Source: a virus
IMG/VR virus record: IMGVR_UViG_3300025536_000012
Location: 3,496 to 67,495 of that record
Strand: one strand, 5' to 3'
DNA length: 64,000 nucleotides
Position 1 is the first letter of the stretch; each line of letters begins with the position of its first letter. Positions 2,204-61,930 of this stretch are shown one piece after another. The notes beneath the pieces are model-generated. The model worked only from the letters and a program-made list of their open reading frames with translations, searched no databases and was not told the DNA's origin. The position numbers were made by a program, and so were the translations under genes.

Positions 2204-2704
2204 ATGTCGGACGGGGATACCCTGGGCGGATTCAATCCAGCCAGGAAAAGCGCGTATGAACAAATGGCTCAGGTAGTCCGCAACTTCACGCGGGACATGC
2301 CTGAGCTTAACCGTCTCATCCGTGGAGTGGAGAGCTCGAATCGGCTGATCTTCTGGGCAATTGATGATGCCGTAGAAGATTGGAACACCACACCTCCGCT
2401 TATTGGCCCCGTCAGTATCGAGAGTCATCCGGCTCGTCGTCTACTGATGCGAGGAGCGGTAATTCACCTCCTCGAGTCCGTAGGCCTTCTACAGACTCGC
2501 AACCACCTGACGTTCTCGGACGGCGGTATTCAGGTTGGCGTGAGCGACAAGACCCCACTCATTCATGCCTGGCTTCAATATTTCAAGAACGACTACGAGC
2601 AGAAGAAGCTTCGGCTCAAGGTATCGTTGAACATCGAAGCTGCTTGGGGCGGTGGTGTACATTCCGAGTATCTTTGGGTCAACGGTTTCTACGGAGGTTG
2701 GTAA
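2204..2704 (+). CDS. hypothetical protein (166 aa)
   Basis: ORF immediately follows the previous stop. Confidence 0.55.
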   Translation: MSDGDTLGGFNPARKSAYEQMAQVVRNFTRDMPELNRLIRGVESSNRLIFWAIDDAVEDWNTTPPLIGPVSIESHPARRLLMRGAVIHLLESVGLLQTRNHLTFSDGGIQVGVSDKTPLIHAWLQYFKNDYEQKKLRLKVSLNIEAAWGGGVHSEYLWVNGFYGGW

Positions 2705-2861
2705 CTCATGGCTCTTGCAAATCATCGTCTTCGAATTTTCCAGACCGCCAAGGAACTGGAGACATTCATTCGTACTGATGCCGCTATCTTGACGATCGTT
2801 AGCATTCATCAAGACAACAGCGGCGGATATATCCTCATCTTCACGGTCTAAAGGGGGGAAC

Positions 2862-5776: not shown

Positions 5777-5877
5777 ATACGGCACCGACCGCAGCGACGA
5801 TTAAGACGGCGATTTCGAAAGCCTGGGAGCTGGAAAGCAAACCCGGACGTTCTACTGTGACCAAGCAGCTCTCGATG

Positions 5878-6144
5878 ATCGATGGCCATCGTAGTCAGAT
5901 CGCTGCGTCTGAGGGTGGTTCCGTTGATTCAGTTCTAGACCGTCACAAGAAGGTGAAGCAGAGCGTTGGTGACTCGATGAAGATCGCCATGCTTCCCATT
6001 CATCCTCCTGCGGATCCAGAAATCCAGCAGAAATGGCGTGGTCGTCCTCCCAAGATGAAGGATAGTACGTCGGTCATGGGTGCCATGGAGAACACCAACT
6101 CGATGTTGTCTCCTGCCTCTACAACGACGGGACCGACGCAATGA
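5878..6144 (+). CDS. hypothetical protein (start uncertain)
   Basis: Open frame after the stop at 5776; first ATG at 5878. Overlaps the next start (ATGA). Confidence 0.35.
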   Translation: MDGHRSQIAASEGGSVDSVLDRHKKVKQSVGDSMKIAMLPIHPPADPEIQQKWRGRPPKMKDSTSVMGAMENTNSMLSPASTTTGPTQ

Positions 6145-7040
6145 GGTTGAAGGTCACCAAATTATACGCTCGAAGCTTCGATCTCGATTATCTCGATCTC
6201 TACTGGGAGATCGAATCGTTCGAAAGAGCGCAGGACGTCATCACTGCCTACGAGTTCACGATCCTACGATCTGAATCTCCAGAAGGCCCATTCAACAAAT
6301 TGGCTGGTCCGTTCAAGGATCAGTATCGATTCCGAGACTTCAGCCAGAACCTCCTCCACAAGTGGAGACAGCTCTACTACAAGCTCCAAATCCGTCATGT
6401 TCCAACTGACGAAACGGTGGATGCAGGAGTCTGCACGCTCGAGGCAGAGCCAGATCTGATTGCTCTCGAGATCCAGCGTCAAGAAGACGTCCTCTTTCGA
6501 GAGTTTGTTGGACGTCCGTGTTGGCTTTTTCCTGTTCGTATGTTTGGAGAGAAGTGCACGTGTTTCGATCGAGTCATGAACCGTCAGACTCACTCGAACT
6601 GCATCACCTGTTTCGATACTGGATTCATTGGTGGGTATATGACGCCCATCGAGATCTGGATGCAGATCGATCCAGACTCCGGTAATCCTCAAAACACCTC
6701 AATTATCGGCGAGATTCAACCAAAGAACACTTCATGTCGTGTTGGTCCCTATCCACCCATCAAGGCTAAAGACCTCATAGTCGAAGCCGAGAACAGGCGT
6801 TGGAAGGTGGTCACACAATCCGGAACAGAGAGACTACGAGCCATTGTTCACCAAGAGCTCTCACTCCACCTCGTAGTGAAGGGCGACGTTGAATTCAAGC
6901 TTCCAATCAACATCTCAGATTTGAGACGTACATGGGCGCAAGAAAGAAACTTCACTAACCCTCAACACGTCGACGACATGGACTACAAGGAGAGCGAGCT
7001 GCTGGATATCTACGACGGCAGCCCGCGAGGTGCCCAGTGA
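6141..7040 (+). CDS. Cys-cluster virion protein (299 aa)
   Basis: CTCFD...HSNCITCFD cysteine cluster. Sits inside the structural block. Confidence 0.55.
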   Translation: MRLKVTKLYARSFDLDYLDLYWEIESFERAQDVITAYEFTILRSESPEGPFNKLAGPFKDQYRFRDFSQNLLHKWRQLYYKLQIRHVPTDETVDAGVCTLEAEPDLIALEIQRQEDVLFREFVGRPCWLFPVRMFGEKCTCFDRVMNRQTHSNCITCFDTGFIGGYMTPIEIWMQIDPDSGNPQNTSIIGEIQPKNTSCRVGPYPPIKAKDLIVEAENRRWKVVTQSGTERLRAIVHQELSLHLVVKGDVEFKLPINISDLRRTWAQERNFTNPQHVDDMDYKESELLDIYDGSPRGAQ

Positions 7041-8146: not shown

Positions 8147-11100
8147 ATGGCCGAACTTCCAAGACCGGGCGTCGAAGTCATTCAGCAGTTTCAAGCTGCT
8201 TCACCGACTGTCCTGAACCCCACACTTGTTCCGTTCGTAACGGGACCCGCAAAAGAAATCGTCGAGTTCCTGAACTCAGACGGTTCCATCAACACAGGTG
8301 CCAAGCAGGGTACTTACGAGCAGCTTCCACAGGTAGTTGCCCAGAGTGCCTTTCCCTCCCCACGCAGCAACATTGCTGAAGTGAATGTCGAGGAAGGTAC
8401 CATTGAGGCAGCTATCCTATTCGGAGGAAAGCTCTCTCAGCTCGATCGCGACCCCGGCTCTGCCTTCTTGGTGGGCTGGAACAATGCTCGTCGTGCGGCC
8501 TATCGTTCTCCAGAAATCACTGGTGCCGGACTCGCTCTCGACGGTTTGACTCTTGTCATCGCCATCGACCAGACGGTTCGTCTGAACGTACTCAGCGATA
8601 TCGCTATCACCTTCGCCACAGTCGGAGGCGGTAACCTCACCGCTGCACAGATCGCAGACCAGATCAACGATGCCGTTGGTGAAGACGTCGCCTCTGTCAT
8701 CGAAGTCGGTGCTAACTTCCGTGTTCAGATCGCCTCGACCCTTTGGGGAGCTGGCTCTTCTGTCACCATTCGTGCCGGCGGTTCTGCTAACGCTCTGATG
8801 GTATCCCTCACCGACTCGGTCGAATACCGTGTGGAGGCCGCAGGCTTCTACGCCCAAGATCAGGTCGATAACACCACTCTCTCGCCGTACATTGTCTGGA
8901 GTCGGGGTGTTAAATACCTCGACGGTGTTGCTACCGCCTTCGGAGTGGCCCTGGCTGCCGACGCCAGCTTTGGTCAGATCTACCTCGACTCGAGCGACGT
9001 TGAAACCTACGAGGAAGCTCAGGCTTCGAACATCACCTTCACTGGTGGCGGTTCAATCGATCTCAAGGTCGGCGATTACTTCGTTGTGGATGGCGTTCGT
9101 CCGAACACGTCCGCTGAAGTCTCTCGTGTGGAGACGACTCGCTTCAAGCTTGGAATCATTAACACAGCGCTCTCCACGTTCGATGACGATGGGGATATCC
9201 TGACTGCCGTCTACGACGACAGCAAGGTCAACACTCTTCTCTCCAGCGTCCCATTCTCTCCGCACTATGCGTGGTTCAAAGCCCGTAAGCTTGCGGGAGA
9301 GAATGTCGCTGCCACCGCAGCAACGATGACCGGCACCAAGCTGGGAACTCCTGCAACGGTTGCAACTATCCTCGGCGTCGGTGCCGGTGCTGGTCCATTC
9401 GCTCTTGCTGGTCTGACTCTCAAGACCACACTCACGCTGGATGGAGAAATTCAGGACCAGTATACCTTCACCTTCACAGGTGGACCCTTCGCCGACATGG
9501 CAGCCGTTGTTGCGGTGATCGATATCGATGGGATTGTGGCTTTGGACGCTTCCGGCCAGCTCCGTCTATCGACCACAAGCACTGGTGCTGATCAGGCTCT
9601 GAGTCTAGATACTGGATCATCCGCAGCAGCCGTTCTCGGATTCGCAGCTCTTCCGACCTCTGATATCGGAACTGATGTCGAATTCAAAGATATGGCTGCT
9701 GTTCTGACAGGTGCAGCTCAGACTTTCGCGTTCACTGGAACGATCGGTCATACCCTTCTAGTCGATGTATCGACCGATGGGGGGCTCACCTATCCAGTTA
9801 CGAGGACCTTCACGCATGATGCGGGGTCGATCGGTCCTCATGCCAACATTACCGCTCTTATCGCTGCTCTCAACACAGCAGCTCGATGGGATGGCGGTGT
9901 TTTCCCAACCCAGTTCACGATCACGAACACCGGTAACCAAGTCGTTATCACCTCTACCGCAACGGGCGGTGGTGTGGCTCTTCGGATTGGTGCTGCTTCT
10001 ACCGGTATCTTGCCGGGTGCAACAAATGCCCAGCTTCAGTTCGCTGCTAGTGTTGCTGACATCGGTGAAGAAAACCTTCAGGGTCTCACCCTCAAGCTAC
10101 GCCTTAACGATCGTCCAGACATCTACTCCGTAGTCTTTCAATCCGACTCACTGGATGATGCGGTTGCTGAGATCAACGAGGTTATCGGCTTCTCTGTTGC
10201 CTCTATCGGAGGCGGTTCTCTTAGTCAGCTCGTACTGACGAGTCCTTTGGAAGGTGCGGCCTCCAGGATCGAAGTCGTTGACGATACAGTCAACATCCGC
10301 GGCTATTTGGCCTTCGGTTTCACCTCGAATCAGTCGGCTGTCGGTACTGGTCGTCCCAACCCGGATTTCCGGGTCGACGACTTGGGTAATGCCCTCATTG
10401 GAGGAGAGCTTCTCCGCAATGCAGTGACGGGCAATCCATTCAGCAACTCGATCGCAGACCTGTACATCCAGTACACCGGTCTCCGTCTCGACGTATCTCC
10501 CCTGGCAGCCAGCCCAGCTCTTCTCTCCATCAGCGACGTCACGACCCTCGAGCAGGTTCTCGGTCCTCTGAACCAGAACAATCCTCTCGGTCTCGCGATG
10601 TTCTTTCAGATCATCAACGCCCCCGGCATCGCTTGCAAGGGTATGGGTGTTTCTGGATCTTCTGCTGCGGAGCCCGAAGGAACGTTGACCGCGTACACGC
10701 AGGTCGCCTCGTTCATTCAAAGCGAAGAAGTCTACGCAATCTGTCCTCTGACGTCAGCACAGACCGTTCATGAAATGTTCACAACTCACGTGGGCTTCAT
10801 GTCCGGAGCGGCTCAGAAGGGCGAGCGTATCCTCATCACGTGTCCGCTGGATCCTCTTCGCGATAACGACACTGTCGTATCTTCTGGTCTTTCGGCCAAC
10901 ACTACGGCTACTCCGAACCAGCTCACTCTAGATACGAACCCCAATCAGGGTCTCATCGACAACGGTATCAACCCAGCTCTTCCGATCGATGAGGAAGACG
11001 AGGTCTATATCGAGCTAGCTGTAGTCGTTGGAGCCCTACAGGAGGTTCGTCGATACAGTGTTGCCTCGGTGAATGGTGTCCTCACCACGTTCCGTACGAC

Positions 11101-11869
11101 GTTCACGGGAGACTTCAACATCGACGGTTTCTACACCACGACTCCACTCACGGAGACGTTGGTGAACGCCAACTGGTCAATGGAGATCCGTGGATCCGAG
11201 CTCCTGATCCCTGGCTCTACACTACTCGACAAGGATCGGGTTGCCGCAACAGTAGCTGCTCGAAGCGAATCGATCGGCAATCGTCGAGTCATCTCCCTGT
11301 TCCCCGATACCGTAGTAGCGGTGGTCGAGGGTTCAGATCAGGAGCTCGAGTCATTCTACTACGGTGCCTGCATGACCGGCATGGTGGCCTCAAATCCACC
11401 ACAGCAGGGATTCACCAACCTACCCTCGACGGGCTTCACTGGTGTGAAGGGCTCGCAAGACTCCTTCTCTACCTCGCAGCTCAACATCATGGCGGGTGGT
11501 GGAACGTATATCATCGTTCAGGATGCCCAGGGCGGTCCGGTTACCTGTCGTCATCAGGTCACAACCGACCTGACTTCTACGGAAACCAGAGAGTTCTCTA
11601 TCACCAAGATCGTGGACTTCGTTGCGAAGTTCATGCGTACAGGTCTCCGGAACTACATCGGAACGTTCAACATCACCCAGCCGTTCCTGGACATGCTGTC
11701 TACAGTCATTCAGGGACAACTTTCCTTCCTGGAGGAAGGTGGTGTTATCCTCGGCGGTGACCTGAACAACCTGATTCAGGACAAGGACAATCCGGACACC
11801 GTCATTGTCGACATCACTCTCGACGTTCCCTACCCCTGTAACTACATCCGCCTCACCCTCGTGATCTAA
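8147..11869 (+). CDS. large tail-sheath-like structural protein (1240 aa)
   Basis: Strong SD (gaggagcatttaagATG). The N-terminus MAELPRPGVEVIQQF resembles the conserved PG(I/V)Y/E start of contractile-sheath proteins. Long, Thr/Ala/Gly-rich with internal repeats. Confidence 0.45.
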   Translation: MAELPRPGVEVIQQFQAASPTVLNPTLVPFVTGPAKEIVEFLNSDGSINTGAKQGTYEQLPQVVAQSAFPSPRSNIAEVNVEEGTIEAAILFGGKLSQLDRDPGSAFLVGWNNARRAAYRSPEITGAGLALDGLTLVIAIDQTVRLNVLSDIAITFATVGGGNLTAAQIADQINDAVGEDVASVIEVGANFRVQIASTLWGAGSSVTIRAGGSANALMVSLTDSVEYRVEAAGFYAQDQVDNTTLSPYIVWSRGVKYLDGVATAFGVALAADASFGQIYLDSSDVETYEEAQASNITFTGGGSIDLKVGDYFVVDGVRPNTSAEVSRVETTRFKLGIINTALSTFDDDGDILTAVYDDSKVNTLLSSVPFSPHYAWFKARKLAGENVAATAATMTGTKLGTPATVATILGVGAGAGPFALAGLTLKTTLTLDGEIQDQYTFTFTGGPFADMAAVVAVIDIDGIVALDASGQLRLSTTSTGADQALSLDTGSSAAAVLGFAALPTSDIGTDVEFKDMAAVLTGAAQTFAFTGTIGHTLLVDVSTDGGLTYPVTRTFTHDAGSIGPHANITALIAALNTAARWDGGVFPTQFTITNTGNQVVITSTATGGGVALRIGAASTGILPGATNAQLQFAASVADIGEENLQGLTLKLRLNDRPDIYSVVFQSDSLDDAVAEINEVIGFSVASIGGGSLSQLVLTSPLEGAASRIEVVDDTVNIRGYLAFGFTSNQSAVGTGRPNPDFRVDDLGNALIGGELLRNAVTGNPFSNSIADLYIQYTGLRLDVSPLAASPALLSISDVTTLEQVLGPLNQNNPLGLAMFFQIINAPGIACKGMGVSGSSAAEPEGTLTAYTQVASFIQSEEVYAICPLTSAQTVHEMFTTHVGFMSGAAQKGERILITCPLDPLRDNDTVVSSGLSANTTATPNQLTLDTNPNQGLIDNGINPALPIDEEDEVYIELAVVVGALQEVRRYSVASVNGVLTTFRTTFTGDFNIDGFYTTTPLTETLVNANWSMEIRGSELLIPGSTLLDKDRVAATVAARSESIGNRRVISLFPDTVVAVVEGSDQELESFYYGACMTGMVASNPPQQGFTNLPSTGFTGVKGSQDSFSTSQLNIMAGGGTYIIVQDAQGGPVTCRHQVTTDLTSTETREFSITKIVDFVAKFMRTGLRNYIGTFNITQPFLDMLSTVIQGQLSFLEEGGVILGGDLNNLIQDKDNPDTVIVDITLDVPYPCNYIRLTLVI

Positions 11870-11922
11870 ACCAGAACCCTAGTTCGAAAGGGCCGGGTTC
11901 CGGCTCGATACAGGAGATACCA

Positions 11923-12366
11923 ATGCCCGCAATCTTTGGTGCAGGAAATCAAGCTCTCGCAGCCGTTCAGAGCCTGGCAAACCGTGGCGACAACCTCGCA
12001 ACGGTTATCATGTCCATGCTCAACAACACCTACTACCTGGCAATGGTGCCTGGTGCAGAAGCTGGTGGCGGTGCCGCTGCCAACTCCATTCGTGTTGCCT
12101 GTCAGGTTCGAGATCAGGATGGCAGTGCCGTTGCCGGAATCAAGAACATCCTCATCACGTCGAAGCCGATCGCAGGAGCTGGTACCATTACCGATGGTGG
12201 TGCCGGTGCCGTCGTCGCTGGCTCTGCTTCGGTTTCGTGTTGGATGACCACCGATGCAAATGGTGCCCTTCAATTCGACGTGCTCAACGCTTCTGCCGAG
12301 ACCAACCTCGTGAAGGCAGAGCTCGACAACGGCACTACGGAGATCATTGTTCTCACCTTCGCCTGA
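11923..12366 (+). CDS. Ig-like domain protein (147 aa)
   Basis: SD (caggagataccaATG). A beta-rich SIRVACQVRDQDGSAVAG pattern is typical of Big/Ig-like folds. Confidence 0.5.
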   Translation: MPAIFGAGNQALAAVQSLANRGDNLATVIMSMLNNTYYLAMVPGAEAGGGAAANSIRVACQVRDQDGSAVAGIKNILITSKPIAGAGTITDGGAGAVVAGSASVSCWMTTDANGALQFDVLNASAETNLVKAELDNGTTEIIVLTFA

Positions 12367-12412
12367 GTCTGGCGGACTCTGATAGAATCGGAATCACCTC
12401 TTAGGAGACAAC

Positions 12413-13126
12413 ATGTCGAAGCTTTCAGAGTGGGCGCCATACAACCGGTACGTTCAAGGCGGACTGGTCGACGGACAGTTCTTGTCCGCTGCCTACACCC
12501 TCCTTGCAGCCGGTCCTCCTCGTCTCGCCAACATCGGCGGTGCAACTGGTGCTGCCGCTGCTCTGTCGAGCTCGGGGGCTGGCCAGGACTTCGCGATGCC
12601 TATCGGCGTCGTTCAGAACGTCAACCTGGCCCACAACCGTTCATTCGCCCGCTTCTGGGAACTTGGAAGCGAGCGTTCGTACTTCATCTCTGGACGCACC
12701 GTGGGACAGCTTGGGCTCTCTCGAGTCATGTATCACGGCCCTTCGCTGCTCAGGATGCTGTACGCATACTACCAGGACCTCTTGCCGCCTACGGTGGTAC
12801 CCTTCGTCTTCCCGAATCCGGGTGTCGTGACGCAGGCCAACCCCCACAACGTCAAGATCCCTCCTGGTTACGAGAACCTCTACCTGAACCTCGCCTCGGA
12901 TCTCTTCAGCCAGCCTGTTGGCATGCTGATGTACTTCCGTGACTCGAATGAGGATACGGTCGGCGCCATCTACATGGAGGAGTGCTACATCCCTTCGCAT
13001 ACCATTGCGACGGATGCTGGTGGTACTGTTATCCAGGAGTCGGCAGCCATCCAGTTCGAACGAGCAGTTCCTGTTGCAGTGAGCTCGCTGGCTCTCATCA
13101 CGGGTCAGTTCGATCCGAATGGCTAA
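12413..13126 (+). CDS. possible tail tube protein (237 aa)
   Basis: SD (taggagacaacATG). Position and size fit a tube protein downstream of the sheath; no motif proof. Confidence 0.35.
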   Translation: MSKLSEWAPYNRYVQGGLVDGQFLSAAYTLLAAGPPRLANIGGATGAAAALSSSGAGQDFAMPIGVVQNVNLAHNRSFARFWELGSERSYFISGRTVGQLGLSRVMYHGPSLLRMLYAYYQDLLPPTVVPFVFPNPGVVTQANPHNVKIPPGYENLYLNLASDLFSQPVGMLMYFRDSNEDTVGAIYMEECYIPSHTIATDAGGTVIQESAAIQFERAVPVAVSSLALITGQFDPNG

Positions 13127-16864: not shown

Positions 16865-18940
16865 TCAATGTCGGAGGAACCGTACGAACTCTCGAAGCAC
16901 CACTTCGAGCAAGGCTTGTCCTATCTCAATTGCGGGCACTCGACGCCAGAAGGAAGGAGGACCGAACATCTCGAGAGCGTCTGCATCCGTGATTTCGTTT
17001 CCAAGGATGACGGTATAGATCATCACCTTCTTCGTTCGTGCGTACTCAATCTCCTTCCGAACGAAACCCATCAACGCTTCTCTAGAAATGTCCTTGCCGT
17101 CGACCTTGAATTGGGTTGGATTACCGTCAGTGAGAAGAAATAACCTCTTCTTCATTCCAGGCGGAGTGCTCGATGCGAGGTGCTTCACCGCAACGTGAAT
17201 TCCCGTGTGTGTGGGAGTCATGCCATCACATGACACCGGTATAGTGCTCTTCTGGTTCGCGTAGAGACCCTGTGCCTCCACCTCAGTCGCTAAATAACCA
17301 TCACAATCCTTGTGGTACTTGTAGATCCACACCTCACCACCGTTTGTGAGGGCAGCGATCTTTTCTTTGATCGTGGGATAGACACCAAAGTCCTTTCCTA
17401 TGGCTCCTCGAAAACCCCACAGATTTCCGCGTACGAATGGATAGTCTAGAGCTCGCTTGAGCATCTCAGATCCGATGCAGACGTAGTTGAATGGATTGCC
17501 GGTCATGGACCCTGACATGTCACAAAGCGTCAGATAGGAGAACCCGCGATCAAATCCGTCGTCCTCGAATACTGCATCATCTTGGCCATCCATTCGATAT
17601 TGGATCATTGCCTGTACATCGATTTCATCTCCGTCGTCAACAAGTCTGGAGATCTTTTTGCCGATGAACTTCGCAAAGACCGAGCGCATCCGATCAATTT
17701 GCTCTTCTTCATCGAGGGGAATGACGATGCGAGCATTGGGCGAGATGTGTTTGGGCTCTACATCGGCGATGAGCACCTTGGCAGCAGCTTCGGTAAGCAG
17801 AAACTGGTTCTTGCTGAGCTCTCCTTCCGATGCTCTCTGAAGTGCCTTGATTGCGCCTTCCATATCTCCATCGACTGGAACCTTGAGCCCCATAGATTGG
17901 AGTGTGGGGACTTCTTCCTGTTTCCCCTGCATCGGCATGTTGAAGATCTTGGCCAGCGCCGCCTCATCAGAGATCTGTAGCTTGTGGAGAGGGTTTACTG
18001 TCTTGTCGTGCTGGCTGAGCTGGTAGTGCTCTTGGTCTCGACGGAACGTGTGTGCTCGGTCAGAGAGCTGCTGCGCTGCCTCATCTCTGGTTTCGGGCCG
18101 TGCCTGCGACTGTGGAGATTCTCTATCGTCGCTCTTGTCTCCACTTTCCTGCTGCTCTTCCTGTCCTTCACCTTTTTCTTCTTCCTCGGGAGGATTGATG
18201 AGTCGTTCCAAACACTGCTCGAGGAACCAGCGCACAACGGCCAGCATATTGGCCGCACCACGTCCCTTCACAGCCTCTGTAGCCTTACGAGCTAGCGGGA
18301 CTAGATCGTGAAAAGGTCCTTTTCTCCTATTGAGATTCTCGGCATCCAGAGCCACGCCGAAGATCCAAGAGATGAAGTTCTCATTGAGGTCTGGAGCAGC
18401 CTCTGCGAGCTCCTTCCACTTCAAGGCGATCTCTCCTGCTGAACCTGGATAGACGAGAGACCACAAACTGTTCACGCGTAGATCGTCGAAAGCCTCAACG
18501 ATCTGACGAATCAACACCTCTACGTGAGCTCCGAAATGTGCTGAGTACATCGTCACGAACCTGTGAAACAGAGCCGGAGACGATTTGAATATGATGTGAC
18601 TCCACTCGTGCTCGAAGCTGCGATAGGCGTACATCATGCCGCAGCGATAGCAGGACATCTCTGTTCCTGGACGAATAATGGCTTCTCGTCGTGCCATCGA
18701 AGTATGCCCACAACTCAGAAGGCACTCCACCGGGCCATACACCTCGATTACTTTCTGGATCACGACCTGGCTGAAATTCACAGCCACGAAACCGACGATG
18801 TTGGTGCTCGAGACCTTGTCTTCTTTGAGGACGATCTTCTTATCGAACAATCCGTTGAAGATGTGGTTGGTTTTGTAGAAGGGGTCCTTGCTTGGGATGT
18901 TGAACTCTGGATCTACGTACTCAGACAGCGGTCGTTTCAT
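16865..18940 (-). CDS. CobT-like VWA-domain protein with N-terminal HExxH motif (691 aa)
   Basis: MIDAS-like LTLCDMSGSMTG (DxSGS) places a VWA domain at the C-terminus. HEWSH zinc-hydrolase-like motif and an acidic E/Q-rich linker. Confidence 0.65.
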   Translation of the reverse strand: MKRPLSEYVDPEFNIPSKDPFYKTNHIFNGLFDKKIVLKEDKVSSTNIVGFVAVNFSQVVIQKVIEVYGPVECLLSCGHTSMARREAIIRPGTEMSCYRCGMMYAYRSFEHEWSHIIFKSSPALFHRFVTMYSAHFGAHVEVLIRQIVEAFDDLRVNSLWSLVYPGSAGEIALKWKELAEAAPDLNENFISWIFGVALDAENLNRRKGPFHDLVPLARKATEAVKGRGAANMLAVVRWFLEQCLERLINPPEEEEKGEGQEEQQESGDKSDDRESPQSQARPETRDEAAQQLSDRAHTFRRDQEHYQLSQHDKTVNPLHKLQISDEAALAKIFNMPMQGKQEEVPTLQSMGLKVPVDGDMEGAIKALQRASEGELSKNQFLLTEAAAKVLIADVEPKHISPNARIVIPLDEEEQIDRMRSVFAKFIGKKISRLVDDGDEIDVQAMIQYRMDGQDDAVFEDDGFDRGFSYLTLCDMSGSMTGNPFNYVCIGSEMLKRALDYPFVRGNLWGFRGAIGKDFGVYPTIKEKIAALTNGGEVWIYKYHKDCDGYLATEVEAQGLYANQKSTIPVSCDGMTPTHTGIHVAVKHLASSTPPGMKKRLFLLTDGNPTQFKVDGKDISREALMGFVRKEIEYARTKKVMIYTVILGNEITDADALEMFGPPSFWRRVPAIEIGQALLEVVLREFVRFLRH

Positions 18941-19941
18941 ACCGCTGCCCTAGTGCTGTTCCACTTCTCCTTGGCCTTGAATCCGGCAAAGCTTGAGCTG
19001 ATTCGAGCCGCCACGGTCTCTTTGTCCTTGCCCTCGAACTTGTGGAAGAGCATCTGCAAGGCCGATTCGGGCCCTAGAAGCAGGATGGTCCTCAATAGCT
19101 TCACCACGTCTCGAGTAGAGAGGGCATAGCTGAGGCTGTGTCTCTTCTCTCTGGTCTCAGCGGCCAACGTGGTGCAACCCAGAACGAAGGCATCGAAAGC
19201 AACTGGATCCATACCCACCGGTATAGGTACATTGGCTTCCAAAATGGCCTTCTCTTGGCTCTGTGTGGGGTAACCGATCTCAACCTCTACCCATCTAGAC
19301 CGGAAGTCTTCATTGAGATCGTAGGTGCCTCCGTAGAGAGACGGATTCATGAGACCAACAGCCCAAATCTGAGCTCCAGCTCTCAAGCGATAGGTCTTGC
19401 CAGCTTGAGGAATGGATACCGACTTACGGAAATCGAGAAACTCATTGAGCTGCTTTTGTGTCTGAGGTGTGAGGGCATTTACCTCTTCGAAGGCGATGAT
19501 GGCTCGACCGTACTCGTTGGCAACATCGATGGCGGTGGCCATGCTGCCCAACATGAAGGGCGTCTCACTACCTTTGAAGAAGAAGTTACCGATCAAATCT
19601 TTCTTCTTGATATCTTCACTACACGGTACAGTGATGGTTGGAGTTTGTGTAGTCGCCGCAAGAGCGATGAGGGAGAGGGATTTACCATCTCCTTTGGGCC
19701 CCCGTACAAGTAGATTCTCGTTGAACATCAGCTTGTGGTAGAGGGGAATCAGGTTGAAGACATCCACGTATGGAGGTGTGGAGGTGTACATGAAGTCTTC
19801 GATAGGGGATCGCACAATGGAGATATCTGACTCTCCGTTAGACATCTCGAGTTTCAACGAGGCGAACTGAGATGGAGTGAGCTCGCTCAACCACTTTTTC
19901 CACATAGACATTTCTTTCTCCTGGCAAAAAATGAGGCGCAC
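18937..19941 (-). CDS. MoxR/CobS-like AAA+ ATPase (334 aa)
   Basis: Walker A LLVRGPKGDGKSLS, Walker B-like AIIAFEEVNAL. ATGA overlap with the downstream VWA partner, a typical arrangement. Confidence 0.7.
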   Translation of the reverse strand: MRLIFCQEKEMSMWKKWLSELTPSQFASLKLEMSNGESDISIVRSPIEDFMYTSTPPYVDVFNLIPLYHKLMFNENLLVRGPKGDGKSLSLIALAATTQTPTITVPCSEDIKKKDLIGNFFFKGSETPFMLGSMATAIDVANEYGRAIIAFEEVNALTPQTQKQLNEFLDFRKSVSIPQAGKTYRLRAGAQIWAVGLMNPSLYGGTYDLNEDFRSRWVEVEIGYPTQSQEKAILEANVPIPVGMDPVAFDAFVLGCTTLAAETREKRHSLSYALSTRDVVKLLRTILLLGPESALQMLFHKFEGKDKETVAARISSSFAGFKAKEKWNSTRAAV

Positions 19942-19969: not shown

Positions 19970-20740
19970 TCAGATCATCGTTATGGTCCAGGGAAACGAT
20001 TCCTGAACCAACATACGGAAGCCCGAATCTATCAAATCCTGTCGACTTCCGGTTTGCCCAGACCCGCCCACACAATTCCCCCCGATTCTACGAGAGTTGT
20101 AGTTGATCGGACCTCCGAGCGAGTTGGTATCTCGCTTGAGTAAAACGTTAGATGCCGGCACCCAGAACAGCACATTGCTGAACGTTGGAATCGGAGACGT
20201 ACCAATCGCATTGACAAACCCGTTACCACTACACCCGGTGGTGATGTAGAAGATCTCAGGCGCAGGAATCGAGAGGACAATGAAGTCCTTTGGAGCCTGC
20301 GATGTGTTCTGTGTTACCTGGTGGCCGTAGAATCCGGCAACAAGAGGATCCGAGGCTCGGTAGTTGGCCGAGACCGGAAGACCGAGCTCCCGTCCATCCA
20401 TCGTCGGACCGCCTGCAATCAGTATCAGTCCCGATCCGGCAGGACCAGCCGGGCCTTGCGGTCCAGTCGCTCCAGTTGCACCCGTGGCCCCGGTAGCACC
20501 AGTGGCACCTTGAGGACCCTGACTGCCGGTATCGCCCTTCGGTCCCTGAGGTCCTTGCGGACCAGTAGCTCCAGTAGCGCCGCTACTACCCATAGCGCCG
20601 GTAGAACCCATAGGACCTTGAGGACCGGTATCTCCCTGTGGTCCCTGAGGTCCTTGGGGCCCCACAATATCTCCAGTATCAGTCGCATCGCTGCCACATC
20701 CCATCACGCATGCCATCAGAACAATAATCACCTTCGACAT
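19970..20740 (-). CDS. collagen-like repeat lipoprotein (256 aa)
   Basis: About 30 G-X-Y triplets ([19 protein letters not shown]...GATGATGATGATG). N-terminal signal with lipobox-like [11 protein letters not shown]. Globular C-terminal domain. Confidence 0.7.
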
Positions 20741-21993: not shown

Positions 21994-22290
21994 CTATTTT
22001 TCGAAGGCCTGTGTGTTGAGAGTTTCTCGCCAGGGCTTCAGATTTGTGCCTGTAAATAGGATTGGATCGAGCTCGTAGAGCTTGACGATGCTCATAACAA
22101 CCCAGCGAGTATCCGGGCTGAGCGCCACCGGGTAATACTGCACCATCTGACTCTCGCCAGTAATGTACGTGACGGCACAGATCAACTCTCGACCTGTGTA
22201 CCTTCCAGCTCCAGTACCAGCACATAGAAGGCATTTCTTTGACGTAGTTTCGTCTTGATCTACGAAACGCTTCTCACCCGCACATGACAA
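21994..22290 (-). CDS. hypothetical protein (98 aa)
   Basis: ORF overlapping the next gene by 31 nt. Confidence 0.35.
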   Translation of the reverse strand: MSCAGEKRFVDQDETTSKKCLLCAGTGAGRYTGRELICAVTYITGESQMVQYYPVALSPDTRWVVMSIVKLYELDPILFTGTNLKPWRETLNTQAFEK

Positions 22291-22895
22291 TCAGCGCAAT
22301 ACCCTTTCTCGTCCCCAAATTCTTGAAGAACGAGAATATCTCCATTTCTGAAACCTCGATCCTGACGTCTCCACTCGTGGGTCTTTGCTCCGCTGTGGAT
22401 TGCATCGAACCCAGTGGGCCACGTCTTGAGCATGTGGACTTGTTTTCTTCCCCAGGCAACCTTGTTGAGAAGTTTGGATCGCGTTTGCTCGAGAAGTAAC
22501 AGCTCCTTAATTCGGGGCGGTTTCCAACCTTCTGGTTTGAGCTGTTTTCCTGTCACCGGATCTAGTGGTCCGCCTTCTTTCTGAAGATTGGTCCAACAAA
22601 CCTCCTCCCAGAACGGCGCTAGTCGGATACCAGCTTTGGACATGGCGTAGAGCACGACGAAAATCGTATCAGCTGCCCCATCGATGATTTCCGCCCAATT
22701 CTCCTCATCAATTGCGTCGAGCATTTCTTTGCTCTCTTCCTTGATGAGCTTGATGCAGAGATCTCGAACCTTGTCATCAGGCCAATGAGCAACTACGGCT
22801 CCCAAGTCCCCCTTCTTAACCCTGGTGATGAACTTGTCGACATCTTGCTGAATCAGTTCCATTGGAGTCATCGCGCAGCTCTTCCTTTCAGCCAT
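22260..22895 (-). CDS. MazG-like NTP pyrophosphohydrolase fused to an ASCH/PUA-like domain (211 aa)
   Basis: EESKEMLDAIDEENWAEIIDGAADTIFVVLY matches the MazG EExxE/D helix motifs. The C-terminal FDAIHSGAKTHEWRRQDRGFRNGDILVLQE resembles ASCH. Confidence 0.55.
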   Translation of the reverse strand: MAERKSCAMTPMELIQQDVDKFITRVKKGDLGAVVAHWPDDKVRDLCIKLIKEESKEMLDAIDEENWAEIIDGAADTIFVVLYAMSKAGIRLAPFWEEVCWTNLQKEGGPLDPVTGKQLKPEGWKPPRIKELLLLEQTRSKLLNKVAWGRKQVHMLKTWPTGFDAIHSGAKTHEWRRQDRGFRNGDILVLQEFGDEKGYCADCHVRVRSVS

Positions 22896-56538: not shown

Positions 56539-57933
56539 ATGAACTCGGTAGAGCTTGCGGCCTTCAGCGACGAGCTGATGAAGATTGCTGCCGACAAGGA
56601 AAAACCCTTCTGGCAAAAAGCACTGCCATTTGCTGCGGCGGCCGGTGCTGGAGTCCTTGCCTACAAAGGCTTGAGGACACCATCCTTTTCCAAGAACCCG
56701 GCGTTACGGAAAGTTCAAGAGCTCGCATCTAGCAAAGGCTTCCACCGTATCGTCGACGTGACTCCTGATGGAACTGGTGGATTTCTTCGTCCTGTTGCTG
56801 ATGCTCAGGGCAAGCTCTCGCCATTGAACAAGGCCAAGCTGTTCCTGAACGAAGGAACTACAGAAGCCATTCCGATCACCTACACCCCGAACCAGGCGGG
56901 TAATTACTCCACCAAGGTTGTTGGTCAGAAAGGTCCGAGACAGGTAGAGGGTGTCGTTCATGGACGTCCTGATATTTACGGACGTGACAAGGCGGTTCGC
57001 GGAGGTGTGGATGTCGAAGGTACCCCTGAGGTGCAGAGAGCGATGACCAACCTTGCTGCGGGTGGAAAGAGGAGTGAAGCAGATCTCCTCAGCAAGCACG
57101 CCCCTGAAGCAATCCCAGAGACCTTCACGGATCTATCTCCGATGTTCAAGAAGCTCCCGAAGGATCGGCAGCAAGCCATCAACGAGCTCCGTAACAGAAT
57201 CAGAGCAGCCCATGGAGAGAATGTTCTACTGAAGCCGAACCAGGGCCTGTCTTCTGGAGGCAAATTTCCTCGATCCAATCAAGACTGGGGAGCTCAACTT
57301 CGGACCTACGACGAACACATGGCAGATCCAGTCAAGAGAAAGGCGTATCGAGCTCTGAAGGGTGAGGACAATGCTCTTGCCGATTATTCGAAAGAACATG
57401 GATTGTACGAGGGCAGTGTGCTTCACAATGCGCTCAAAGATCCGAAGTCGATGCTTGCTCAGAAGATAGTAGACAATCCAATGGGCGAGTGGAGAGTGCA
57501 TACTGTTGCAGGAGAAGCTCCGAGAGGGTTGATGACTCCCAGGTTCGCTAGCAACCCAGCAAAGACTCTAGCTGCTCGTGCCGGTGTTGGAGATGCCAGC
57601 ACCAAAGAACTCCAGCAATTCGTAGAGCAGGATATTCTACAGAAACTACCAAAAAATTATCGCGAGGGTAACTACGCCTTCGATGTCATGCCACATCGGA
57701 AGCCTGATGGCTCCATCGGGTTCAAGACCATCGAGATGAATCCAGCGGAGAGAGCGAAGAGCCAGAGTCTATCTGGTGGAGGATCGGGGTTCTTGGATAC
57801 AGCAGCCTCTCCGTTCTCTGGACTAAAACATTACCGCGCCGTAACTGGCAGACATACACCCCTAGTTGCTGGACTAGGAGCCGCCGGAGCCGCAGGCGCT
57901 ACCGGAGCAGTTACAGGGACCGTGGGCGAATGA
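56539..57933 (+). CDS. ATP-grasp superfamily ligase (RimK/GshB-like) with N-terminal extension and Gly/Ala-rich tail (464 aa)
   Basis: NVLLKPNQGLSSGGK matches the ATP-grasp P-loop-like VIKP..G.GG. EWRVHTVAGE matches the (D/E)xRV.VVGGE strand. YAFDVMPHRKPDGSIGFKTIEMNP matches the G.D......G..(V/I)E(V/M)N..P catalytic region. Confidence 0.6.
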   Translation: MNSVELAAFSDELMKIAADKEKPFWQKALPFAAAAGAGVLAYKGLRTPSFSKNPALRKVQELASSKGFHRIVDVTPDGTGGFLRPVADAQGKLSPLNKAKLFLNEGTTEAIPITYTPNQAGNYSTKVVGQKGPRQVEGVVHGRPDIYGRDKAVRGGVDVEGTPEVQRAMTNLAAGGKRSEADLLSKHAPEAIPETFTDLSPMFKKLPKDRQQAINELRNRIRAAHGENVLLKPNQGLSSGGKFPRSNQDWGAQLRTYDEHMADPVKRKAYRALKGEDNALADYSKEHGLYEGSVLHNALKDPKSMLAQKIVDNPMGEWRVHTVAGEAPRGLMTPRFASNPAKTLAARAGVGDASTKELQQFVEQDILQKLPKNYREGNYAFDVMPHRKPDGSIGFKTIEMNPAERAKSQSLSGGGSGFLDTAASPFSGLKHYRAVTGRHTPLVAGLGAAGAAGATGAVTGTVGE

Positions 57934-58393
57934 TCAGTCCTTCGTTGTTCCATCGCTTCTCGAACTGAGAGATCGAGCTCTCACGGAATAACTGACTTTT
58001 CCAACTTGGATCAGACAGGTAGACCGTGTCCTCTTTCTCGTCGATGGCGTAGACAACTCCGTAGTGATCTCCGTCCAGGCCAACCATCACTACATTGTCT
58101 GTAGCGATAGCCTTTACCAGATCTCTCCAGGACATCTTCGGTCTTCGGCCAACACGCATCCCATGAGAACGTAGGAAGCGTATGACTGGAGCCTCTGCTG
58201 TCCCGTCCGAATCCGTCTTGAGCTTCTCGTACACCTCTCTGTAGCTGACATCGACTCCGAAGAACGAAGTGATGGCATATACACAACACGGCCCGCAGGT
58301 GTACGACGTGAACTGAAACTTACGCGGAAAGTCTGCAAACCCGACGAGAGAATCTGATCTCTTATCGGGGATGCCGAGAAGTAGACCCAGCAT
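57911..58393 (-). CDS. C39-like (papain-fold) cysteine peptidase domain protein (160 aa)
   Basis: YTCGPCCVYAITSFFG matches the Peptidase_C39/C39_2 catalytic-Cys block (N.CGP..L.M.L.YYG). DGDHYGVVYAID supplies the His block. Its 3' end overlaps the ATP-grasp gene convergently by 23 nt. Confidence 0.6.
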   Translation of the reverse strand: MLGLLLGIPDKRSDSLVGFADFPRKFQFTSYTCGPCCVYAITSFFGVDVSYREVYEKLKTDSDGTAEAPVIRFLRSHGMRVGRRPKMSWRDLVKAIATDNVVMVGLDGDHYGVVYAIDEKEDTVYLSDPSWKSQLFRESSISQFEKRWNNEGLIIRPRSL

Positions 58394-59477: not shown

Positions 59478-60122
59478 TTACACTTTTCTGAATACGGATA
59501 CAGACATGGGAGAATGGTTGCTTTGATATTCGAGTCCTCCCACGAATTCCAGCTTACTCTCAGAGATCTCGTCCACCGTTTTAAGAACTCCGGCCCATCG
59601 ACGATCATTGAGAGATCTACCCTTCTTAGCCCCCAGCCTTATGGTTCGTGTTCCGCTATGGTTGCGGACCTTGAGCTGTTCACGCCCACGTTCCCACGTA
59701 AGCCCAACGATTGACCCACTAATCATCTTCTCGTGGACCTCTCGCAGGCACGGAAGAACGTTGTAGGAGTTCAGGTGTCCCATGAAGTCCAGGTTGGCAA
59801 ACCCGACCTTATCGATCTGAGGAAGGGCTTCTCGTAAATTTCCAAGTCGAGCCTTTGCTCCAGGCCAATACACTCGAACTTGCTTGATGGCCTTTTGGAC
59901 GTGACGATTCTTGATATCGTTGTCAACGAACCAAGATCGTTCGGCCTCCCAACCCAAGTAGTCTCGAAGAAGTGAGACTTCCTCTCGGGGCTCGGTTCCG
60001 GCTAGCGTGATTGCATGTCCCTGTCGTGGAGCATCGACAGCGAATTTATACAAAAATAATCGCGCTGCCGTTTTGTCCTGATGGTTCCCAGGGAACGGAG
60101 ACGAGCGCAATTGTTCTTTCAT
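59478..60122 (-). CDS. hypothetical protein (214 aa)
   Basis: ORF. Confidence 0.5.
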   Translation of the reverse strand: MKEQLRSSPFPGNHQDKTAARLFLYKFAVDAPRQGHAITLAGTEPREEVSLLRDYLGWEAERSWFVDNDIKNRHVQKAIKQVRVYWPGAKARLGNLREALPQIDKVGFANLDFMGHLNSYNVLPCLREVHEKMISGSIVGLTWERGREQLKVRNHSGTRTIRLGAKKGRSLNDRRWAGVLKTVDEISESKLEFVGGLEYQSNHSPMSVSVFRKV

Positions 60123-60598
60123 ACGAGTGCCAGATACTTGAATGGGATGTGTGTCGTCGGATTCGTCTTCGTGACGTATTTAAGCTGCTTGCTGTTGATC
60201 AGCATATCGATAACTCTCCGAATGGGGTAGAAGCTCTTCTTCATTTTCTTCATGAGCTTGTGGACGGTGGCGAATTCGTCCGTCTTGACCATTTGAAGAA
60301 TAGGTTTCGTCAACTTCTCGTTGTTTGTGGCCATGATCTTCTCCCCTCGCTTCGCCTGATGCGACTTCGGCTTCTTACGTTTGACCTTCTTGTTGGCGAC
60401 GATCTTCTTGGCCTTGGGCTTGGTTGGCACAAGGGTCTCGACCTTCTTCGTGACATCGCGACCTCCGCCGGGCCCGTTTGTCAGCGCATCGAATTCGAAC
60501 TTTCCTTCAGTGAACAACCTTTGACCTTGATCCATCTTGCGAACCGCGTCGATCAGCAACTGTTGACGGTTCGTTATCTTTGACGTTTCTAACTGCAT
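60119..60598 (-). CDS. Lys-rich basic protein (about 159 aa)
   Basis: SD ggaggaaaaccacATG. KPKAKKIVANKKVKRKKPKSHQAKRGEK tract. Confidence 0.45.
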   Translation of the reverse strand: MQLETSKITNRQQLLIDAVRKMDQGQRLFTEGKFEFDALTNGPGGGRDVTKKVETLVPTKPKAKKIVANKKVKRKKPKSHQAKRGEKIMATNNEKLTKPILQMVKTDEFATVHKLMKKMKKSFYPIRRVIDMLINSKQLKYVTKTNPTTHIPFKYLALV

Positions 60599-60743
60599 GT
60601 GGTTTTCCTCCAAAGTAAGTTCCTCTTGTGATGTGAGCCCGATACGCAGCAATCACTCCTATCGAAATTGACGGGAAGTATTCCTGAATATCGTTGTTAG
60701 AGAACCCAATCTCGATCATCTCGATTAGGTCTGTTACCTCGGT
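60507..60743 (-). CDS. hypothetical protein (about 78 aa, start at MTEV; overlaps the next gene)
   Basis: GGAGATAAGC motif, then GAGGAAACC SD and ATG. Confidence 0.35.
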   Translation of the reverse strand, partial: TEVTDLIEMIEIGFSNNDIQEYFPSISIGVIAAYRAHITRGTYFGGKPHAVRNVKDNEPSTVADRRGSQDGSRSKVVH

Positions 60744-60798: not shown

Positions 60799-60830
60799 AA
60801 AAAACGGAGGCTGTCCTCCTCTATTCTTCA
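60799..60830 (-). terminator. conserved terminator cassette
   Basis: AGAATAGAGG-AGGACAGCCTCC-GTTTTTTGC. Confidence 0.6.
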
Positions 60831-60968: not shown

Positions 60969-61466
60969 TTATAGACCGCGACGCTTCCATATGCCTTGCG
61001 GCAAGTAGGTGCGATCCGAGTGAGAACAGACGCCGAGCTGACCAACAACGACAACTCCTTCGCGATAAGGAACTGCATTTTTCAGAAGCTCGTTGGAGTA
61101 GACCGGAGACGTGCCTTCGGCGCAGCTGATGGTGATGTGGAGAAGCTCGTTCTTGATTACAATCCCAGTGAAATCAATCCACGGAAATTTCACCGACACT
61201 GCTTGCGCCTTCTCGTCCTCGGCGTAACCAGTCACCTGGATCGCGAACTCTTGAGTGATCGGGCTGTTGGTCTTATTGATAAACCTGACCTGGTCTAAGT
61301 CCGGCTTGTACCAGAAGGTCACGTGGTCGGCGTAGATGTTCTGGTGCTTCGGCTTAAACACATCGAGAAGTGCTACGCGTTCCATCTCTTTTAGGAAGAC
61401 CCCCGTGTAGATGTGAAGCTTCTCCGGCAACTTCTCGAGGCTCGAAAATCCTTTGAAATTGATCAT
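60969..61466 (-). CDS. 2H phosphoesterase superfamily protein (LigT/CPDase/Acb1-like) (165 aa)
   Basis: Two H-x-T-x motifs (ADHVTFWY and LLHITISC) about 70 aa apart, the 2H-fold hallmark. Confidence 0.55.
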   Translation of the reverse strand: MINFKGFSSLEKLPEKLHIYTGVFLKEMERVALLDVFKPKHQNIYADHVTFWYKPDLDQVRFINKTNSPITQEFAIQVTGYAEDEKAQAVSVKFPWIDFTGIVIKNELLHITISCAEGTSPVYSNELLKNAVPYREGVVVVGQLGVCSHSDRTYLPQGIWKRRGL

Positions 61467-61825
61467 CAGTGAATGCTCGGATATGAGTGTTCTAGAGGAA
61501 GCAGCCTCTCGATGAGAAAGTAGCTACCATCATGCAGGTAGATGGCCAGCATTCCGGGCTCGACGTTTGGACTGAGAACACCACCCATCTGCTCTCCGAA
61601 AGCGGCCTGGATTGTGGTGATACCGTCGTCTCCGATCTTCTGTTCGAGACCGAGAATGACGAAGCCCTTGTTCAACCACAAGTATCCATCTGTGCATTCG
61701 AGATTGTGGCCAGACATTTCTTTGGCCTCTGCGAGCGTGAGATCTCGAACTCGTTTCCATGCCGGATTGTACTCGGCATCGTACTCGTCGAATGGGTTCG
61801 TACCGTGGATCTTCATGTGATTCAT
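61466..61825 (-). CDS. hypothetical protein (119 aa)
   Basis: Class-B promoter, leader and SD (ttaggaggaaacaATG). Confidence 0.5.
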   Translation of the reverse strand: MNHMKIHGTNPFDEYDAEYNPAWKRVRDLTLAEAKEMSGHNLECTDGYLWLNKGFVILGLEQKIGDDGITTIQAAFGEQMGGVLSPNVEPGMLAIYLHDGSYFLIERLLPLEHSYPSIH

Positions 61826-61896: not shown

Positions 61897-61930
61897 CAAA
61901 GAAACGGAGCCGAGCTCCTCTGTTCTTACT
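61897..61930 (-). terminator. conserved terminator cassette
   Basis: AGAACAGAGG-AGCTCGGCTCC-GTTTCTTTGC. Confidence 0.6.

Follow-up and report, generated by a model that had tools for sequence, protein, structure and literature searches.

The closest described counterparts of the protein analysed here are the cyclic phosphodiesterase (CPD) domain of the fungal tRNA ligase Trl1 and the enzyme CNPase. The CPD of Candida Trl1 carries its two catalytic motifs, 682-HVT-684 and 767-HIT-769, on strands beta2 and beta5, and CNPase can replace this domain in yeast (PMC7145591). Domains of the 2H superfamily have also been reported in roughly one in three medium and jumbo phages, where they are predicted to clear 2',3'-cyclic RNA ends, acting jointly with ligases, KptA, sirtuins, HAD 'Swiss Army Knife' phosphatases and kinases (PMC7824862, PMC9503650). 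We analysed one such phage gene, which encodes a stand-alone 2H phosphoesterase of 165 amino acids at positions 60969..61466 (stop codon included) on the minus strand of a 64,000-nucleotide stretch of the IMG/VR record IMGVR_UViG_3300025536_000012. This stretch, the window, belongs to a metagenomic contig of 212,233 bp. We found that the predicted structure and the profile matches of the protein point to the Trl1-CPD/CNPase clade, and we consider it most likely (probability about 0.6) to be an RNA 2',3'-cyclic phosphodiesterase that would act with a polynucleotide kinase (PNK)-type kinase in healing RNA cut by host RNases.

Motifs, fold and clade of the 2H protein

The open reading frame (ORF) begins with ATG and contains the first catalytic motif, H48-V-T50-F (HVTF, residues 48-51), at 61314..61325 and the second, H110-I-T112-I (HITI, residues 110-113), at 61128..61139, both on the minus strand. 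A word-indexed homology search returned 39 relatives at E values from 2e-80 to 1e-6. Across their alignment, in which identity falls to ~30%, H48, T50, H110, T112, P121, Y123 and N125 showed no variation. Two H-h-[TS]-h motifs 40-110 residues apart occurred in just one of the 331 six-frame ORFs of at least 60 amino acids in the window, namely this one, and the same pattern arose in 132 of 100,000 shuffles (0.13%) of the protein; the motif pair is more than chance. The gene also looks real because it has homologs down to E 2e-80, its start codon overlaps the stop codon of the upstream ORF (TGATG) and its AlphaFold2 model has a mean predicted local distance difference test (pLDDT) score of 92.7.

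In this model, which was built on the 39-sequence alignment, the protein adopts the alpha+beta fold of the 2H superfamily with the two HxT motifs on facing central strands, each motif starting one of them (beta2, strand E48-53, and beta5). A Foldseek search of the PDB returned the kinase-CPD of fungal (Candida albicans) Trl1 as the best match (6U05, 19% identity), followed by ~50 matches that were catalytic domains of CNPase and RICH and among which Acb1 was absent. In structure, the model thus lies clearly closer to CNPase and Trl1-CPD than to the remaining branches of the 2H superfamily. In a library of viral models, the best matches were giant-virus proteins of 738-771 amino acids, one of them annotated as an RNA ligase, and Acb1 appeared at rank 13. 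Profile searches gave a similar ordering: PF08302 (tRNA_lig_CPD) was matched independently by 31 of the 39 family members at E<=0.01 (best E 2.4e-8) and by 19 of 41 fusion relatives (best 1.4e-9), and LigT_PEase was matched by 2 of the 39. These results place the protein, as modelled, in the Trl1-CPD/CNPase branch and not in the LigT or Acb1 branch. It is probably a metal-independent 2H phosphoesterase, a compact stand-alone version of the CPD module found in Trl1 of fungi and plants, vertebrate CNPase and the Swiss Army Knife proteins of eukaryotes. Elsewhere the searches were less informative. NCBIfam gave no match, PHROGs gave only the unannotated family phrog_36523, and PDB sequence searches that started from the 2H protein, from the profile of its family or from the CPD module in the fusion relative P0152 gave chance matches only, among them HIV gp120 (a 'TxxCxxGxxPVxSxxLL' resemblance) and ribosomal protein L31, both of which we rejected.

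The preliminary description of this gene, made from the letters of the window, had recognised the HVTF and HITI motifs in a 165-amino-acid protein and had proposed a 2H/LigT/CPDase fold. Both points stand, the first through the invariance of the motif pair in the 39 homologs and the second through the AlphaFold model and the Foldseek matches. The spacing of about 70 residues that it gave is shorter on measurement, with 62 residues from H48 to H110, and the minus strand of the gene was not named in it. Neither a PF02834 profile match nor a closest structural likeness to the LigT/ThpR type was found.

Judged by spacing, several but not all residues around the motifs match those of the same branch. 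In Candida Trl1, phosphate-bridging waters are held by Asn763 (His-4) and by Asn782 (His+15, on the helix that follows), and Tyr647 (beta1) and His687 (His+5) touch the terminal nucleoside (PMC7145591). The base is clamped in CNPase by Phe235 (His230+5) and Val321 (His309+12), and R307, two residues before the second His, tunes KM (PMC4643303). By spacing, Y53 of the phage protein (His+5, on beta2) matches both CNPase F235 and Candida His687, and an aromatic residue occupies this position in ~132 of 150 family members. N106 (His2-4) has the spacing of Asn763, with Asn present there in 105 of 154 members, and Y20 lies on beta1, which carries an aromatic residue in Trl1 as well. The helix after beta5 starts with a 'PVYSN' motif, P121-V-Y-S-N125 (61092..61106, minus strand), in which P121, Y123 and N125 are invariant; by spacing, V122 (His2+12) corresponds to CNPase V321 and N125 (His2+15) to Candida Asn782. 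Family-wide, Pro at His2+11 is found in 145 of 154 members and Val at His2+12 in 106 of 154.

The position of CNPase R307, judged by its place two residues before the second His, is taken by L108. This absence of Arg, together with a structure and profile that are clearly nearer to CNPase and Trl1-CPD, makes it extremely improbable that the active 2H domain is instead an RNA 2',5'-ligase or LigT-type enzyme or a Usb1-type 3'-exonuclease.

We also compared the protein with Acb1, the phage nuclease that the preliminary description had put forward as its possible counterpart. [quoted passage not shown] The shared 2H tetrad and a size near that of Acb1 (152 amino acids) would fit this, as would a loose resemblance between W160 in the tail of the sub-clade and W147 in the C-terminal lid of Acb1 (PMC9117128). 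At the level of profiles, however, alignment of the family with T4 Acb1 (gene 57B) by hhalign gave a probability of 5% over an alignment of 15 columns that was confined to the surroundings of the second HxT, and a local phmmer search with T4 Acb1 did not return the 2H protein among its matches. Moreover, a 190-kb IMG/VR phage contig (L019) encodes a protein of the 2H family (9965-10384) and, 7 kb away, a true T4 Acb1 homolog (17372-17881; phmmer E 1e-20), which speaks against the two being interchangeable. Nor is any fusion partner of the family tied to cyclic-oligonucleotide signalling. We therefore regard an Acb1-like activity, which could have arisen by convergence, as highly improbable: the profile result, the rank of Acb1 among the viral models and the contig with both proteins all tell against it. 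The Acb1 label is thereby corrected, in that small phage 2H proteins are not all Acb1-type anti-CBASS proteins and fold-level ranking separates the branches cleanly.

The tail itself comprises residues 149-165, HSDRTYLPQGIWKRRGL (tail DRTYLPQGIWKRRGL; 60972..61022, minus strand), and is basic and specific to a sub-clade. Its motif, D[RK]xxLPxx[WHCL][KR]RRG[LI], was found only in the 19 closest homologs, all of them stand-alone and all on phage-like contigs. Acb1 surrounds its cyclic dinucleotide with four base-stacking aromatics (Y12, W74, F107 and W147) and a flexible C-terminal lid, whereas the sub-clade tail is predicted to form two short ordered helices (block-mean pLDDT 92-97 over residues 141-165), and its Trp is not invariant, several tail-bearing homologs having His, Cys or Leu where the phage protein has W160. 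The isoelectric point of the tail is 10.9 and that of the core 6.1; analysis of charge was uninformative on RNA binding. Possible roles for the tail are those of a lid, of a clamp on RNA or of a peptide that binds a partner.

Kinase partners and the RNA-healing reading

An exhaustive profile search identified 4,095 cluster representatives (50% identity clusters) of the family at E<=1e-3, of which 1,716 scored at <=1e-10. Most are stand-alone proteins of 125-180 amino acids; many come from large phages and the long fusions come from choanoflagellates. The family had no name in any source record that we looked up. To the partners of its fused members we applied a Pfam scan, covering the 41 fused proteins among the top 150 of the 4,095 relatives. 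The most frequent partner was HAD_SAK_1, the HAD phosphatase of 'Swiss Army Knife' RNA-repair proteins (10/41), followed by the AAA_33 kinase (4/41), R3H (3/41), a KTI12-type kinase (2/41), the MJ1316 RNA cyclic-end recognition domain (2/41) and NUDIX (1/41). Extra 2H domains of AKAP7/LigT type were also present among the 41 (2 AKAP7_NLS, 2 2_5_RNA_ligase2 and 1 LigT_PEase). The relative P0175 has the architecture kinase-CPD-R3H, and the choanoflagellate (Salpingoeca) proteins P0137 and P0152 have the architecture (RWD-)MJ1316-AKAP7 2H-kinase-CPD-HAD_SAK_1-R3H(-NUDIX). The kinase precedes the CPD in these three proteins and in P0174, an order shared with Trl1 and CNPase.

A kinase related to these modules is encoded near the phage gene. 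It is a stand-alone, PNK-type AAA_33 P-loop kinase that lies just outside the window, at 5779-6330 of locus L001 (window coordinates 65137-65688, minus strand), 3.7 kb from the 2H gene and on the same strand. The kinase bears the signature GxGKST...SADxFF...AHxxC...VDNTN...HG and matches the kinase modules fused to the 2H family (phmmer E 1e-9 to 2e-6). Alone it received no PDB or NCBIfam assignment and is interpretable only as a profile with the fused modules. That profile matched, in the PDB, the tRNA(Sec) kinase PSTK (6e-8), mammalian PNKP (2e-6), the Mucorales tRNA-splicing RNA 5'-OH kinase (8e-6), Clostridium thermocellum Pnkp (1e-5) and T4 PNK (1e-4), which indicates that the phage kinase is a polynucleotide-kinase-type enzyme. 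The kinase is kept in the syntenic phage L007. The association with a kinase that characterizes the Trl1-CPD/CNPase clade is therefore seen in the kinase-CPD fusions and in the linked phage kinase, although the linkage is loose and the kinase is not an operon partner.

A second RNA-directed neighbour was found in four IMG/VR loci (L023 and L025-27), where the 2H gene directly follows, and overlaps, a 755-amino-acid ORF (7620-9887 in L025, the same in L026 and L027; 7500-9767 in L023) whose stop overlaps the 2H start. This ORF is a CCA-adding/poly(A)-polymerase-type tRNA nucleotidyltransferase (E 4e-16, residues 44-320) fused to a C-terminal HAD phosphatase with a DMDDT motif (residues ~485-744). 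The arrangement suggests a compact phage cassette for the repair of tRNA 3' ends.

We propose that H48/T50 and H110/T112, on two antiparallel strands, would clamp a 2',3'-cyclic phosphate, by analogy with Trl1-CPD, CNPase and the Swiss Army Knife enzymes. One His would activate water and the other would protonate the leaving 3'-O, so that the cyclic phosphate on the 3' end of a broken RNA would be converted to a 2'-phosphate and 3'-OH, the regiochemistry of Trl1-CPD and CNPase. The terminal nucleoside may be held between Y20 and Y53 and, opposite them, P121-V122, and N106 and N125 may organise the active-site waters. Together with the PNK-type 5'-kinase, the 2H enzyme would heal RNA, probably tRNA, after its cleavage by metal-independent ribonucleases of the host, for example anticodon nucleases and effectors of HEPN or MazF type. 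Ligation or extension of the healed ends could follow, and host KptA or a host ligase or an unrecognised phage ligase could complete the pathway. On this account, the gene would serve phage counter-defence.

Several observations weigh against this proposal. The residue equivalences to Trl1 and CNPase come from spacing, secondary structure and fold scores and not from a residue-level superposition, and two Trl1 residues, Gln678 (His1-4) and Glu680 (His1-2), are unmatched, the phage protein having I44 and A46. The protein itself scored E 0.0016 and 18.4 bits on PF08302, below the gathering score of 23 bits. Around ten small ORFs separate the kinase from the 2H gene, and no kinase was seen within 10 kb of the 2H gene in the relative L008 or in 20 IMG/VR loci. 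The window has no tRNA genes. The search for a ligase or other partner covered the window and 7.5 kb of flank, that is, ~71 of the 212 kb or about one third of the genome; here, Pfam scans and local profile searches found no RNA ligase, RtcB, Tpt1/KptA or HAD phosphatase, and the R3H, MJ1316 and NUDIX modules of the fusions were likewise not found. The Pfam scan comprised 38 window ORFs and three flank ORFs of L001, the tail sheath and topoisomerase ORFs being scanned with PHROGs only, and many window proteins have no Pfam match, so that a divergent ligase may escape such a search. No homolog of T4 Rnl1, Rnl2 or Pnkp was found within 10 kb of the 2H gene in ~30 loci. The role in RNA repair named in the preliminary description has become better supported through the fusions and the linked PNK-type kinase, whereas the partner RNA ligase that it envisaged was not found in the portion searched.

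A further point against the proposal concerns the substrate. CNPase-type enzymes also hydrolyse free 2',3'-cyclic nucleoside monophosphates (2',3'-cNMPs), and RNA-end and small-molecule substrates are therefore not separable by sequence. The protein could accordingly be a phosphodiesterase for small-molecule 2',3'-cyclic nucleotides, acting on free 2',3'-cNMPs, or on short RNAs with a cyclic phosphate end (RNA>p) from RNA decay, and serving to recycle them or to remove a damage or alarm signal to which host sensors respond and not to repair RNA for ligation. In most phages the 2H protein stands alone and has no ligase in its vicinity, as this would predict, and RNAs with cyclic phosphate ends can signal to CARF/WYL regulators (PMC9503650). 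The fusion and neighbour partners, by contrast, are RNA-directed (R3H, MJ1316, the PNK-type kinase and the CCA-adding enzyme), and no 2',3'-cNMP signalling system was linked to any locus that we examined. We consider this alternative unlikely.

A related possibility starts from the tail. The tail-bearing sub-clade might be a phage-specific adaptation in which a CPD has been turned from a repair enzyme into an eraser of 2',3'-cyclic-phosphate signals. Such an enzyme would act ahead of host sensors or RtcB-type repair or alarm circuits, turning the RNA>p fragments or free 2',3'-cNMPs that these read into 2'-phosphates, and the tail would act as a lid or as a clamp for RNA or a host protein. We think this decidedly unlikely; if true, it would represent a counter-defence principle distinct from Acb1 and from T4 Pnkp/Rnl1.

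Genes for NAD- or ADP-ribose-related enzymes lie 0.8-6 kb from 2H homologs in two other phages. Locus L008 encodes a 475-amino-acid WGR-PARP_reg-PARP protein (2360-3787) as well as an R2K ATP-grasp protein, and L003, from an unrelated phage, encodes a DUF488-N3a protein with a YAcAr (SLOG) domain (11230-12477). These neighbours, the NUDIX domain in one fusion and the reported links of 2H domains to KptA and sirtuin systems (PMC9503650) would fit an enzyme that hydrolyses ADP-ribose 1'',2''-cyclic phosphate (Appr>p), or that acts otherwise on NAD or ADP-ribose (ADPr), its substrate being the by-product of Tpt1/KptA- or sirtuin-type 2'-phosphate removal or an ADPr-derived immune signal. However, Pfam scans of the target region found no Macro or sirtuin gene, KptA is missing there too, and the NAD-related neighbours are not conserved between loci. 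We judge an Appr>p phosphodiesterase to be very unlikely, and RNA healing with a PNK-type kinase remains the reading that we favour.

Genome setting and other genes

The window encodes a tail sheath and the large subunit of topoisomerase II, which identifies its source as a large myovirus-type phage. No close cultured relative of this phage was found. Among cultured phages, the sole match to the 2H protein was weak (26% identity); it is a hypothetical protein that Agrobacterium phage Atu_ph07 encodes beside topoisomerase genes. The 2H gene belongs to a run of small ORFs on its own strand, most of which lack a Pfam match. Immediately upstream, the ORF list and the sequence show an ORF of 119 amino acids (61466..61825, minus strand) whose stop overlaps the 2H start codon, and the two are probably co-transcribed and translationally coupled. 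This ORF had no Pfam match and no homolog in the syntenic relatives L007 and L008, and is therefore not a conserved partner of the 2H gene. A consensus scan, as a pattern match only, placed terminator-like hairpins on the minus strand upstream of the two genes (61906..61918) and ~150 nt downstream of the 2H stop (60806..60819; GGAGGACAGCCTCC then GTTTTTTG), and with hairpins on both sides the pair may form one small transcription unit.

As candidates for a conserved operon partner we considered the ~185-amino-acid genes that overlap the 2H stop in L003 and L009, but these are not kinases and are mutually unrelated. The neighbours that recur across 2H loci are a DNA methylase and topoisomerase II, both of which are common phage genes. 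Close to the 2H gene, a pair of genes encoding 177 and 214 amino acids (59478..60652, minus strand) is kept in the related phages L007 and L008. The L008 homolog of the 177-amino-acid protein has weak matches to winged-HTH and sigma-70 region 4 domains. In L007 the pair lies on the opposite side of the 2H gene, indicating local rearrangement around it.

Other proteins of the window and of related contigs deserve mention in their own right. An 875-amino-acid protein (30561..33188, minus strand) has major-vault-protein domains (MVP_shoulder, 3e-30; Vault_3, 5.5e-10; and a weak Vault repeat), and an 886-amino-acid MVP_shoulder protein is encoded directly upstream of a 2H homolog in an unrelated groundwater phage contig (L009, 7223-9883); vault-like proteins are unusual in phages. 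A stand-alone peptidase C39 domain of 160 amino acids, of the bacteriocin-processing cysteine protease type (57911..58393, minus strand; E 1.6e-14), occurs in the JGI copy of the contig as well. Further along the minus strand, a 211-amino-acid protein (22260..22895) fuses a MazG/PRA-PH-type nucleotide pyrophosphohydrolase to DUF3850, and a 334-amino-acid AAA_5 (MoxR/dynein-type) ATPase is adjacent to a 691-amino-acid protein (together 16865..19941) that has a weak, below-threshold match to a C-terminal VWA domain. This pair is followed by a collagen-repeat protein at 19970..20740. On the plus strand, an unusually long protein of 1,240 amino acids (8147..11869) matches the tail-sheath family phrog_279 over its C-terminal ~200 residues only (E 2e-12). 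Outside the window, a 1,592-amino-acid phage protein (L030, 2082-6860; L031, 8639-13417) carries a 2H domain of the same family at residues 420-554, after an N-terminal type IB topoisomerase-like domain (PDB 2f4q, E 1e-11), and may be a polyvalent or injected protein.

Comparison with known systems

Phage 2H domains as such were already known; the placement in the Trl1-CPD/CNPase clade, the Rosetta-stone link to a kinase, the CCA-adding-enzyme neighbourhood and the sub-clade tail are specific to the present analysis. The likeness to Trl1 CPD (6U05; PF08302) extends to identical HVT and HIT motifs on beta2 and beta5 and, by spacing and secondary structure, to Asn at His2-4 and His2+15, to an aromatic residue in beta1 and to an aromatic residue or His at His1+5 (PMC7145591), and 2H relatives are, like the Trl1 domain, fused right after a PNK-type kinase. 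By contrast, the phage protein is a stand-alone protein of 165 amino acids that lacks the fungal Gln (His1-4) and Glu (His1-2), its kinase is a separate gene 3.7 kb away, it has no fused or nearby ligase, and its basic C-terminal tail is missing in most family members. With CNPase (mouse, 2xmi/2ydd) it shares the base-clamp positions, Phe235 and Val321 being matched, by spacing, by Y53 and V122, and in CNPase, too, the catalytic domain follows a PNK-like domain. That domain is, however, larger (~215 amino acids, with extra loops), is 17% identical and has R307 in place of L108, and CNPase is a eukaryotic, membrane-associated enzyme, whereas the 2H protein comes from a phage. The CPD of the Swiss Army Knife proteins (Salpingoeca P0137 and P0152), like that of the bacterial and phage HAD_SAK_1-2H fusions, belongs to the same family (profile E <1e-30), has the same motifs and is accompanied by a kinase module homologous to the phage kinase; these are multidomain proteins, and the phage 2H protein has a single domain.

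The resemblance to Acb1 (T4 gp57B; FBB1, 7T27) is that of two phage-encoded members of the 2H superfamily with ~150 residues, an HxT/HxT tetrad and a C-terminal Trp segment, which differ in that there is no profile-level homology (hhalign 5%), other pocket residues are conserved and the fusion context of the present family is that of RNA repair. A large family (~4,100 clusters), partly below the Pfam threshold, shares the eukaryotic tRNA-ligase/CNPase-type cyclic phosphodiesterase. The practical value of the result lies in providing a well-defined candidate for biochemistry and not a new principle. If 2'-phosphate ends are made in bacteria by such enzymes, phages would use a 'eukaryotic-style' RNA healing, raising the question of which ligase or 2'-phosphotransferase finishes the pathway.

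The closest functional parallel in phages would be T4 Pnkp (pseT). As proposed here for the 2H protein and its kinase, T4 Pnkp heals the 2',3'-cyclic phosphate and 5'-OH ends left by host anticodon nucleases, and T4 PNK is related to the linked phage kinase (E 1e-4). The chemistry would nonetheless differ: in T4 Pnkp, a HAD-type phosphatase domain fused to the kinase clears the cyclic phosphate to 3'-OH/2'-OH, whereas the separate 2H enzyme of this phage would yield 2'-PO4/3'-OH ends, as in the eukaryotic enzymes.

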